From assembly GCA_963790475.1 (NCBI GenBank), contig CAWBOS010000015.1, forward strand, positions 352,001 through 416,000: DNA of 64,000 bases, given 5' to 3'. A model generated the notes under the pieces. That model was not told the DNA's origin. It was given only the letters and a program-made list of their open reading frames with translations, and searched no databases. Positions 8,449 through 11,482 of this stretch are shown piece after piece. The position numbers and the translations under genes were made by a program. The DNA comes from an uncultured delta proteobacterium (lineage in GTDB: Bacteria > Desulfobacterota > RBG-13-43-22). How positions within the stretch are numbered: the stretch's first letter is position 1; each line of letters opens with the position of its first letter.

Positions 8449-8955
8449 ATGGCATCTCCAGAAGGCGCGAAATTGGCGCAATTGATTCGGGAGAAGGTGG
8501 CAGAAATGAACCGGCTTTGTAAGGGATTGGACGAGGGCACGGCCTCCCGGGCTCCCGAGGGAAGATGGACTCCCAAGGAGATCATCTCCCATCTGTCCGG
8601 TCCTGAAGGCATCGGTTATGGGCCGGCCCTCCAGGCCATCCTGAAGCAGGATACTCCCCTAATAGAGATTGAAGCTGCCAACCCCTATTATACGGGGAAG
8701 CGCCCCCAAATGAAATTTTCTGAACTTTTATCCGAGCTTCAAAGAGAATACGGCCGAATGGCGGACGTGGTCGAATCTTTATCCGATGAGCAGTTGGCCC
8801 GGAAGGCCCATGTCCCCTTATTCAAGGATTTACCAATAGGAGAATATCCGACCCTGATGGTGTTTGTTCAGGCCTTAGCCGGATATCACATGGGTGATCA
8901 TCTCAACCACATGAAGGAGATTCTCCAAGGTCTGGGGGTCGCCCTTCCCTCTTAA
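8449..8955 (+). CDS. DinB/YfiT superfamily protein
   Basis: GRWTPKEIISHL and the C-terminal HxxxH metal motif (HMGDHLNH); AGGAGG RBS. Confidence 0.85.
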   Translation: MASPEGAKLAQLIREKVAEMNRLCKGLDEGTASRAPEGRWTPKEIISHLSGPEGIGYGPALQAILKQDTPLIEIEAANPYYTGKRPQMKFSELLSELQREYGRMADVVESLSDEQLARKAHVPLFKDLPIGEYPTLMVFVQALAGYHMGDHLNHMKEILQGLGVALPS

Positions 8956-9202
8956 AGGTCACGATAATCCCCCTAATTAACCCTGTCCGCTTCAAGCGGG
9001 CCAAAGCGGATAGGGACTTTTATAGAAGGAGATAGGGATAAGTCCGGTCGGGCTTGGAGTTGATCGTTAGCCTTTTCCTGGAAGGAAACATTCGTTCTAA
9101 GCTGCACGTCTAAAATGGAGGAGACCGGCATCACCCCTGGGGCCTCATCCTGCGAGACTAAGGGGACTTAGTTTATTGTAAAAGTAATCGTTTTCCATGG
9201 TT

Positions 9203-9242
9203 GTCATTCCGGACTTGATCCGGAATCCAGTCTTTTCAACCT
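9203..9242. repeat. Left part of a REP-like palindromic repeat interrupted by IS110
   Basis: GTCATTCCGGACTTGATCCGGAATCCAG...; pairs with GGATTCCGGCTTTCGCAGGAATGAC at 10775-10799. Confidence 0.7.
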
Positions 9243-9343
9243 AGACATAATGGCTGACAATTAAAAAAGCGACCTGCCCCTTATCGTCGTGGGTTATATT
9301 AGGGAGTGATCCCAATACAGAGCCAAGAATAAGGAGGCAGGTC

Positions 9344-10456
9344 ATGAAACATTTTATCACAGTTGTCGGTATGGATGTACACAAAGATTCCATAGAGATT
9401 GTAATCGCCGAAACCACGGGAACTGAAGAAGTTCGGCATTACGGAAAAATTAACGGCGACATGGCCTCATTGGACAAAGCAGTCAGAAAACTCAAAAGCA
9501 CCAGTAGGGAACTGCACTTTGTCTATGAAGCTGGGCCATGCGGCTATGAGATTTACCGTCACCTATCCTCGCAGGGGTTTACTTGTGTGGTCGTTGCCCC
9601 CTCGAAGACTCCCAGACGGAGCGGCGACCGAGTCAAGAACGACCATCGCGATGCCCAGACACTGGCCCGGCTTTATCGGGCCGGGGAGTTAACCCCGGTC
9701 TATGTCCCTCGACCGGACGACGAAGCCATGAGAGATTTGACCCGCGCCCGGGAAGATGCGGTCAAGGCCTTGCGCACTGCTCGTCAACACTTAGGGGCTT
9801 TTCTGCTTCGGTATGGCCATAGGTACCCCGGTAAAACATCCTGGACGCCTGCTCATAGGCGTTGGCTATCGGACGTCACCATGCCCCACCCCGCCCAGCA
9901 GATTACCCTTCAGGAATATATCCACACGGTAAACGAGGGCACCCTGCGAGTCGGTCGTTTAGTTGACCAGAGTCTGAAGCTGTTGCCCCAATGGAGCCTG
10001 GCCCCAGTGGTTGAAGCCCTCCAGGCCCTCAGAGGGGTGGCTCCTATTGTGGCTATAACCACCGTCTCTGAGATCGGCGATATCACTCGTTTTGAGAACC
10101 CCCGGCAGTTCATGGCCTATCTGGGTCTGGTTCCCTCGGAACACTCCAGCGGCCAGTCCGTCAAACGGGGCAGCATCACCAAAACCGGCAATGGCCACGT
10201 AAGGCGCGTTCTCGTTGAAGCGGCGCATGCTTATAGCTATCCGGCCCGGATAAGCAGGTTTCTGCTCAAACGACAACAGGGACTGCCGCAGCCCATCCGG
10301 GAGATCGCCTGGAAGGCCCAGGTTAGACTCTGCGGCCGGTTCCGTAGGCTTATGGCCCAAGGAAAAATGAAAACCAAAGTGGTAACCGCCATCGCCCGCG
10401 AGCTCTCCGGCTTCATATGGGCGATTGCCAGGGAAGTTCAGTTACGAAACGTGTAG
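9344..10456 (+). CDS. IS110 family DEDD transposase/recombinase
   Basis: VGMDVHK, YEAGPCG, KNDHRDA, LGLVPSEHSSG, ITKTGN and AIARELSGF. Confidence 0.97.
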   Translation: MKHFITVVGMDVHKDSIEIVIAETTGTEEVRHYGKINGDMASLDKAVRKLKSTSRELHFVYEAGPCGYEIYRHLSSQGFTCVVVAPSKTPRRSGDRVKNDHRDAQTLARLYRAGELTPVYVPRPDDEAMRDLTRAREDAVKALRTARQHLGAFLLRYGHRYPGKTSWTPAHRRWLSDVTMPHPAQQITLQEYIHTVNEGTLRVGRLVDQSLKLLPQWSLAPVVEALQALRGVAPIVAITTVSEIGDITRFENPRQFMAYLGLVPSEHSSGQSVKRGSITKTGNGHVRRVLVEAAHAYSYPARISRFLLKRQQGLPQPIREIAWKAQVRLCGRFRRLMAQGKMKTKVVTAIARELSGFIWAIAREVQLRNV

Positions 10457-10512
10457 CCTAGGTCAAAAAACAAACCTTCTTAAAGGAGTATAGAGACCAC
10501 CCATTATATCCT

Positions 10513-10704
10513 ATCCAGGGGACCAGCAGAGACGCGACCCCGTTGGGAGAATCCTCGAGGAATCCAAGGAATAAGGTCATCCGAATTTCCGATCCTAGAG
10601 CGAGGCAGCTCCTGTGACGAAGTCAAGTCAGGCGTTCAAAATACGCGAATATCAGAATGATCAAACGTCGCTAAATCGGTCCCGTCTCTGCTTGTGCCCT
10701 GGAT
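10513..10704 (+). ncRNA. Putative bridge/seekRNA of the IS1111-type element
   Basis: Closing stem ATCCAGGG..AGCAGAGACG..GACC / GGTC..CGTCTCTGCT..CCCTGGAT encloses two stem-internal-loop arms (CCTCG/CGAGG and GTGACG/CGTCGC). Its position downstream of the transposase is the established IS1111 arrangement. Confidence 0.7.
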
Positions 10705-10774
10705 TAAACTGACAGTCTAACCCTCTACTAGGGCCAGGAAAAATCTTTTCCTCTTGACAACTGTCAGCCATATC

Positions 10775-10799
10775 GGATTCCGGCTTTCGCAGGAATGAC
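10775..10799. repeat. Right part of the REP-like palindromic repeat
   Basis: GGATTCCGGCTTTCGCAGGAATGAC; its ends are complementary to GGAATCC and GTCATTCC of the left part. Confidence 0.7.
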
Positions 10800-10942
10800 G
10801 GATTAAGACTATTGTAAACCCATTACTAAGAAACTACACTAAGGGTCGATTCTTTTTTTTTCATAAAACATGAGCTAAATCGCCTATCGATAACAAGAAA
10901 ATTCGCAAACGAATAACCTTTGACCGGATTTCTACTCCGGTT

Positions 10943-11482
10943 TTATTGATAACGGATCACAATCCCACCAAACACACTTGTGGCTTCAATTAACAAATAA
11001 TTCTGGTTCTCATCGAAATTTTTGCTTTGATAAGTAGAGGTTCCAAAAGCGCCGGTAACATTCTCCGGTAATTGTACCCCGCCAAAAACAGCCTCCGCTT
11101 TAATGCGAACGGGTGTTGTTTCACTTAAAATGACCTCCGCGCCACCAAAGACGACCTTGATCTTTATTGGGGTAACTCTTTCCTTAAGTTCGACACCTCT
11201 CAAATCAATAAAGGCCTTCCCGAATAAGGCATTATACTCTTTTGAATCTCCGGAGAGGCCTCGGTAAGTCCTCTCCTGAAATAGGACATTTCCGGCTTTT
11301 CCCTGACAGGAAGGGAAAGAAATACAACTACCAAAAATAATTTTCAGACCGATAAAAATGAGAATCAAACCGAAAAGGACCTTGAATATCGGAATGTGGA
11401 TATTGAAAATAACATTGACAATGATTCCCAAACCTAAAAGAATAATTAAAATTCCAATGAACAGTCCCAGTCCCATTTTCAT
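10943..11482 (-). CDS. LiaF-like membrane protein (cell-envelope stress response domain)
   Basis: Two N-terminal TM helices, then repeated xFGG/xFGx beta-strands (ALFGKAFIDL, VVFGGAEV, SVFGGIVI); GAGGAGG RBS. Confidence 0.75.
   Translation of the reverse strand: MKMGLGLFIGILIILLGLGIIVNVIFNIHIPIFKVLFGLILIFIGLKIIFGSCISFPSCQGKAGNVLFQERTYRGLSGDSKEYNALFGKAFIDLRGVELKERVTPIKIKVVFGGAEVILSETTPVRIKAEAVFGGVQLPENVTGAFGTSTYQSKNFDENQNYLLIEATSVFGGIVIRYQ

Follow-up and report, generated by a model that had tools for sequence, protein, structure and literature searches.

A candidate RNA-guided IS1111-group element inserted in a repeated palindrome of an uncultured delta proteobacterium

Among described systems, the closest to the locus treated here are insertion sequences (IS) of the IS110 family and its IS1111 group, which belong to the recently described seekRNA and bridge RNA class. 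In the passages of Durrant et al. (2024, PMC11208160) used here, IS1111 elements carry short terminal extensions outside subterminal inverted repeats that are 7-17 bp long, and bridge RNAs are predicted in the right end of 93% of them, with loops complementing target, donor and core; the CT core of IS621 is common to donor and target and is termed invariant. The corresponding parts of Siddiquee et al. (2024, PMC11187229) define a GL-P----S/TG motif for IS1111 transposases, give 330-350 aa as the observed spread of their lengths and not as a rule, and propose that transcription of the transposase gene and a long RNA starts from a junction promoter. We analyzed a stretch of 64,000 nucleotides (the window) from an uncultured delta proteobacterium, in which an insertion sequence occupies positions 9243-10774 (+). 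Very probably this is an intact IS1111-group element whose recombinase is guided by its own 3' non-coding RNA, which would read both the target and the joined ends of the element. It is a new element in a known class, clear but ordinary. That the RNA is produced and bound by the protein, that a circle forms and carries a junction promoter, and that the element is active at present, we infer from sequence.

The element and its target repeat

The 1532-bp element starts AGACATAATGG..., finishes ...CAGCCATATC and lies in intergenic DNA, between open reading frames ending at 8955 and 10943. Its transposase/recombinase gene (9344-10456, +), with the Shine-Dalgarno sequence AAGGAGG upstream of the ATG, encodes 370 aa that match PF01548 (DEDD_Tnp_IS110, N-terminal; E = 6e-20), PF02371 (Transposase_20, C-terminal; E = 8.5e-24) and the NCBIfam model NF033542, 'IS110 family RNA-guided transposase' (score 268 bits, cut-off 140). 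Two relatives with solved structures, ISCro4 and IS621, are matched weakly. In the alignment with the ISCro4 transposase, D11, E62, D100, D103 and S269-G270 each fall on an identical residue; the IS621 match (E = 1.2e-07) extends over 69 residues, and equivalence to D11, E60, D102, D105 and S241 of IS621 was assigned by motif position, not by printed alignment. The sequence GLVPSEHSSG at residues 261-270 is the GL-P----S(t)G motif of IS1111 transposases, and among annotated sequences the nearest, at 59% identity, are Azospirillum plasmid genes labeled 'IS110 family transposase'. Outside the gene, the element has 101 nt of non-coding DNA before it and 318 nt after it. The 13-nt subterminal inverted repeats, ATGGCTGACAATT on the left (9250-9262, +) and its partner AACTGTCAGCCAT on the right (10759-10771, +), differ by one mismatch. 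Beyond them lie terminal extensions of 7 nt on the left (AGACATA, 9243-9249, +), the first two bases of which, AG, are invariant in 51 of 51 homologous loci, and of 3 nt on the right (ATC, 10772-10774, +), placed from the genomic copies and homologue ends.

The genome (6.34 Mb in 20 contigs) holds three copies of this element, which differ at 2 of 1532 positions; one difference alters residue 235 (I235 in the window copy, T235 in the other two), the other is silent, and the open frame is kept in all three. All three copies are preceded by ...CT and followed by GGATTCC(G/C)G...GGAATGAC, and thus share one insertion position and one orientation within a repeat. Because the junction-side bases differ at each end of the element, its boundaries allow no shift and the target is not duplicated. 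Outside the repeat, the surroundings of the three copies are unrelated, so the copies are separate insertions. The element is a member of the IS110 family by its domains, by its catalytic D/E/D/D residues and SG serine, and by site- and orientation-specific insertion without duplication; the 13-nt subterminal repeats, the longer non-coding region 3' of the gene and the GL-P----SG motif are the anatomy of the IS1111 group. The IS1111-type RNA-guided recombinase named in the original prediction, which had been made from the letters of this stretch, was thus recovered from protein profiles and anatomy. The open frame, catalytic motifs and near-identical copies suggest that the element is intact.

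When the element is removed, positions 9203-9242 and 10775-10799 rebuild a nested palindrome, GTCATTCC..GGAATCCAG-tcttttcaac-CTGGATTCC..GGAATGAC; on re-reading, this reconstruction, also part of the original prediction, was exact. The left target half (9203-9242) comprises a hairpin unit (9203-9230), the spacer tcttttcaac (9231-9240) and CT (9241-9242), and the right half (10775-10799) is the hairpin unit GGATTCCGGCTTTCGCAGGAATGAC. Excision in silico joins ...tcttttcaacCT to GGATTCCGGCTTTCGCAGGAATGAC, completing the palindrome with the left hairpin. The left hairpin unit recurs unoccupied elsewhere in the genome: three unoccupied paralogues share the left half and spacer of the window copy, and at least seven unoccupied paralogous units have the exact flanks of a second copy, on contig C12. 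That copy sits in a palindromic repeat of about 210 bp (G000:C12:1488787-1488920, 1490453-1490527), of which there are at least 13 copies at 97-100% identity. This longer repeat has the look of a miniature inverted-repeat transposable element built around the nested palindrome.

The target had been predicted to be a multicopy, REP-like (repetitive extragenic palindrome) sequence. Units of the form GGATTCC-N6-16-GGAATGAC number 143 in the genome, with T preceding 138 of them; 132 hairpin units carry the CT prefix, and 26 full nested palindromes are present. The 9-mer CTGGATTCC occurs 305 times against about 48 expected, there are 109 CCTGGATTCC sites, and the hairpin part of the flank query has matches in 12 of 13 genomes of the same genus. 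As a short imperfect palindrome in many copies and in inverted pairs, the repeat has the form of a REP. The second hallmark, linkage to a gene for a REP-associated tyrosine transposase (RAYT), was not found: the genome has 20 matches to PF01797 (Y1_Tnp), and none of the 19 checked lies within 3.4 kb of a hairpin unit. 'REP-like' holds for copy number and shape, without a RAYT gene beside the repeat. Several of the 20 PF01797 matches are identical copies, IS200/IS605-like, on several contigs.

Three copies are few beside more than 100 matching sites, which would fit a family member that no longer moves, its guide and target being relics and its copies the remains of an old burst or of duplicated surroundings. 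No circle and no locus-specific empty-site contig was seen in the contigs of public runs, and the I235 of the window copy, where the other two copies have T, also points in that direction. This explanation is nevertheless improbable. The copies differ too little for it, with every frame open; their flanks, unrelated beyond the repeat, speak for separate insertions rather than duplicated surroundings; and the occurrence of the element among relatives fits recent spread. Among the 12 same-genus genomes examined for it, one carries the window's element, in copies that are 95-96% identical and located at other sites, and it is present in none of eight more distant genomes. In a search of same-genus genomes for an orthologous empty site, the neighbor gene proved to be only 70-76% identical and the intergenic DNA gave no alignment. 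We retain the reading of an intact, mobile element, with the qualification that its activity may be low or lost, given few copies and many sites.

In a permissive Rfam scan of 9000-11000, the only hit was to CRISPR-DR57, at 9059-9089 on the minus strand. It scored 22.9 bits, below the gathering score of 39 (E = 0.045), and with no array around it we took it as chance.

A structured RNA region and its guide segments

The 318 nt that follow the gene fold at -103.6 kcal/mol (z = -4.39). Within them, a region resembling a bridge RNA or seekRNA is predicted at 10515-10702 (+), in which a closing stem (10515-10539 with 10678-10702) surrounds two arms. Arm 1, the predicted target-binding arm (10553-10605, +), is drawn from folds and covariation and has an outer stem (CCTCG at 10553-10557 with CGAGG at 10601-10605), an inner stem (GGAA/TTCC) and an internal loop. 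Arm 2, predicted to bind the donor (10614-10671, +), has an outer stem GUGACG/CGUCGC, an inner stem GCG/CGC and likewise an internal loop (helices 5 and 6). Relatives were drawn from a genome scan (12 loci) and a metagenome scan (80 loci, with protein identities of 51-77%). Six sequences served to build a covariance model of both arms; it matched 79 of 92 sources, always directly downstream of the gene for the transposase. Among these 79 homologues, 93.4% of 1804 cells were paired, as compared with 82.6% in shuffles and 36-46% with slid partners, and changes on both sides were found in 17 of 25 base pairs; these figures lean towards the model, the alignment itself having been fitted to it. The arm 2 drawn by RNAalifold was not used; the model was given arm 2 from a single-sequence fold, and the later pairing support comes from an alignment fitted to that same arm. 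As modeled, the RNA region is conserved and structured, with internal loops as in seekRNA and bridge RNA.

On the 5' side of the arm-1 loop, inside the CCTCG/CGAGG stem, lies the candidate target guide GGAAUCCA (10559-10566, +), which would pair with top-strand T|GGATTCC; the DNA there reads GGAATCCA, the reverse complement of that junction. The second arm holds ATATCAGA at 10649-10656. Both segments had been pointed out in the original prediction, and both were confirmed on re-reading. Counting both strands, chance alone would produce the two 8-mers 6.24 and 1.64 times in 64 kb, or about 0.016 and 0.004 times when rescaled to 318 nt on one strand. Covariation with the target among relatives is a stronger argument for a guide than these expectations, and the original prediction had named it beforehand as a check.

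The ends of the element were callable in 51 of 79 loci under a rule that called for ATG...CAT, sufficient flank and a repeat no shorter than 9 nt; the common geometry was AG, 5 nt and ATG... on the left, and ...CAT followed by 3 nt on the right. One locus outside the ATG rule (L016, in which the repeat starts ATA) was read by eye. For each locus, the target 8-mer was taken as the last left base plus the first seven right bases, reverse-complemented. After removal of L009, a duplicate, and L087, in which the loop was empty in the alignment, 49 loci were scored. The 5' segment of the arm-1 loop matched its own target at a mean of 6.84 of 8 positions, against 3.86 for shuffled pairings, and none of 2000 shuffles, which do not correct for relatedness, reached so high. 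The match was 8/8 in 14 loci, 7 in 19, 6 in 11, 5 in 4 and 4 in 1. When each distinct guide was represented by a single locus (37 loci), the mean was again 6.84, against 3.83 (0 of 5000 shuffles), and at the five positions outside the conserved T and the dinucleotide it was 4.11 of 5 against 1.60. A relative with the same ends and a protein 63% identical (L008, with its duplicate L009) illustrates the relationship: it is inserted at ...CCCCT|AGTTTTCTTGG, its target is T|AGTTTTC, and its loop reads GAAAACTA where the window has GGAATCCA.

These observations bear directly on whether the RNA is needed at all. The target is a structured palindrome, and GGAATCCA also occurs in the repeat itself (9222-9229), so that the protein might recognize the shape or sequence of the hairpin without RNA, and the non-coding matches might be incidental, for example a captured piece of the repeat. 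We find this scarcely credible: in relatives whose targets are unrelated and non-palindromic, the corresponding place in the loop holds an 8-mer that matches, the match in the window spans 8 nt only and is not part of a longer repeat fragment, and published IS1111-type elements, in the portions of PMC11187229 compared, need RNA.

A second, shorter signal is found on the 3' side of the arm-1 loop (10594-10600, +), where CCU is the sense of the target bases before the cut and the following AGAG resembles the left end of the element, AGAC. Across the relatives, the last 2-4 bases left of the cut recur in this segment in top-strand sense (2.84 of 4 positions, against 1.94 in shuffles); in the window's lineage, CCU fits the CCT found at two of the three genomic copies, and in the relative L018 a target ACT is accompanied by ACU. 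The tail that follows these left-target bases is AGAG or AGAC and resembles the first bases of the element itself; as the left end is nearly constant, this tail gives no measurable covariation. Taken together, the loop segments of arm 1 are complementary to both target strands and change with the target, as expected of a guide.

In arm 2, the candidate donor guide AUAUC-AG (10649-10655, +) reads in the same sense as the right end, ATATC, followed by the two bases that open the left end. Right ends ATATC, ATAAG, ATCAG and ATGAG pair off with guides AUAUC, AUAAG, AUCAG and AUGAG; 5 of 5 positions match in 39 of the 51 loci and 4 of 5 in the remaining 12, ten of which are ATGAG ends with AUCAG, a signal that rests on about five end classes and not on 51 independent events. 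L016, in which the right end is ...ATATG, has the guide AUAUG. The original prediction had allowed that the donor match could be a family-conserved motif; this caveat falls away, as the segment changes with the right end in other clades. In the near clade ATATC stays constant only because the ends do, and the segment behaves as a donor guide rather than a fixed motif across clades. The 5' side of the arm-2 loop (AAGUCAAGUCAG, 10620-10631, +) has GUC near its 3' end, which can pair with G2-A3-C4 of the left end, and in relatives this side can pair with left-end bases 2-6 (GGUC/AGACC, GGCC/AGGCC, ACGGU/AGACCGT). Its agreement with the left end (4.16 of 6, against 3.54 in shuffles) is the weaker signal. 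Since they come from few clades, the donor signals are weaker than the target signal.

The crossover dinucleotide and the joined ends

The counterpart of the CT core of IS621 here is AG, on the other strand, and it starts the left end in 51 of 51 loci. In the same loci, the first two right-hand target bases are AG in 39 cases, AA in 7, CG in 1 and, in the 4 loci of the window's lineage, GG. Of 50 loci, 42 have a guide that spells the dinucleotide of their own target, and seven more (guide AA, target AG) could pair through U-G wobble. In the window's lineage, every junction seen has AG at the left and GG at the right (10775-10776 in the window), and in all non-AG loci checked the left junction keeps the donor AG and the right junction the target dinucleotide. 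It is possible, though we hold it only tentatively, that the crossover dinucleotide need not be common to donor and target in this IS1111 clade. A staggered two-strand exchange across unequal dinucleotides should yield both outcomes, but the result seen is one-sided. This suggests either that the first exchanged strand alone is inherited, for instance if replication finishes the Holliday junction, or that both strands are exchanged at one position. If true, the unequal dinucleotide bears on how IS1111 elements form circles without restoring the target. We found no discussion of it in the passages of PMC11208160, PMC11208158 and PMC11187229 compared, and made no dedicated literature search.

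Joining the ends of the element in silico creates TTGACA-N18-CATAAT. The -35-like hexamer TTGACA (10754-10759, +) lies at the right end and the -10-like hexamer CATAAT (9246-9251, +) at the left, the two being 18 nt apart only if the ends are joined; a scan of the integrated element for a sigma-70-like promoter found none. The joined hexamers probably act as the promoter of both transposase and RNA. A published paper reportedly deals with Pjunc, a promoter of ISEc11.

The proposed mechanism is as follows: a 370-aa DEDD/serine recombinase would be guided by an RNA encoded 3' of its gene, at about 10515-10702. Arm 1 would read the target, its 5' guide pairing with top-strand T|GGATTCC and its CCU with the bottom strand just left of the cut, and AGAG, the lookalike of the element's own start, would correspond to the 'handshake' positions of IS621. 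Arm 2 would read the joined ends of the excised circle, AUAUC-AG representing the right end plus two left-end bases, while GUC on the opposite side of the loop could pair with the left end. Insertion would then take place in one orientation, between CT and GGATTCC of the REP-like hairpin, at any of more than 100 sites in the genome, and the joining of the ends would place TTGACA 18 nt before CATAAT.

Several observations weigh against this account and are best considered together. The protein, at 370 aa, exceeds the 330-350 aa given for IS1111 transposases in the parts of PMC11187229 compared, and only three copies of the element occur despite 109 CCTGGATTCC sites. Some of the pairing is short: the 3' target segment of arm 1 has only 3 nt, and one of the three genomic copies has TCT, not CCT, at that position; in the window's own arm 2, the 5' segment pairs three contiguous bases only (GUC with AGAC). 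The arm-1 tail AGAG showed no measurable covariation with the left end (99 of 2000 shuffles were as high). To these are added the uncorrected relatedness in the shuffles and the small number of donor end classes. Regarding the fold, RNAalifold alone drew arm 2 differently, and a permissive Rfam scan of 9000-11000 gave no family for the RNA region. Finally, no RNA, circle junction or excision product was seen in the contigs of four public runs.

Two kinds of public contig were considered as candidates for such products and rejected. Apparent skips from about 9230 to 10775 have other letters between the two sides and belong to other copies of the repeat, and contigs from two RNA libraries, which cover parts of the gene and 10321-10576 with many differences, come from relatives and are no sign of expression.

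A second element, significance and comparison with known systems

Four copies of another IS1111-like element, one of them with a deletion, are present in the same genome; this second element differs from the first, measures about 1590 bp and has the ends AGACCTTATG...CAACATAGA (G000:C12:171501-173087, equivalent to L096 302-1888; C13:478883-480472; C1:240097-241686; C12:1483070-1484520). It occupies a different position of the same hairpin family, ...CCGCG|GGAATGAC or ...TTCACC|AGGGGTGAC, and in the C12 copy the reading frame ends after 241 aa. In their 3' non-coding regions the copies carry either GTCATTCC or GTCACCCC, in each case the reverse complement of that copy's own right flank, and another segment follows each copy's own left flank. 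Because these segments follow the flanks of their own copies, the second element shows the same guide logic within one genome. The covariance model of the arms (R1) had no match to its RNA. In a same-genus genome (L005 2933-2965), a single hairpin holds both the window's element and the second element, 17 bp from each other and each in the position proper to it.

For genome annotation, the locus is an ordinary mobile element. Its value is that guide, target, donor ends and many empty sites are all readable in one genome, which makes it a clean natural example. The roughly 50 related elements form a covariation set for the guide code of this IS1111 clade, that is, which loop position reads which DNA position, and this set could be of use when such recombinases are to be selected or reprogrammed. 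The unequal dinucleotide and the presence of two elements on one hairpin are small leads, on mechanism and on the division of a repeat family.

ISPpu9 of Pseudomonas putida (PMC12288879) is also an IS110-family element with several copies in REPs and a small RNA gene downstream of its transposase gene; it differs from the window element in host, repeat and sequence. The bridge RNA of IS621 (Durrant et al. 2024, PMC11208160; Hiraizumi et al. 2024, PMC11208158) is similar in that one RNA has a target loop and a donor loop, each pairing with both strands around the cut, with 'handshake' positions that resemble the other partner, and in that the target is a REP sequence. In contrast, IS621 belongs to the IS110 group, has its RNA in the left end, subterminal repeats of 2-3 bp and a reversed order of guides, and its invariant CT core is common to donor and target, whereas AG in the donor faces GG in the target here.

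Also comparable are the IS1111-family elements ISEc11, ISPa11, ISKpn4 and ISPst6 (Siddiquee et al. 2024, PMC11187229), which share with the window element a DEDD transposase with GL-P----S/TG, subterminal inverted repeats, a long non-coding region downstream of the gene and a proposed junction promoter. Their seekRNA, too, has two short target matches, a top-strand match 5' of a bottom-strand match, overlapping at the cut. They differ in sequence, target and host, in a protein of 330-350 aa as compared with 370 aa, and in that the window element is known here from sequence alone. A donor-reading arm, visible here by covariation, is not described in the parts of that paper compared. Natural re-direction of close relatives through the guide segments alone is common to both studies, with ISEc11 and ISXne4 as the pair in PMC11187229 and the window element and L008 as the pair here.

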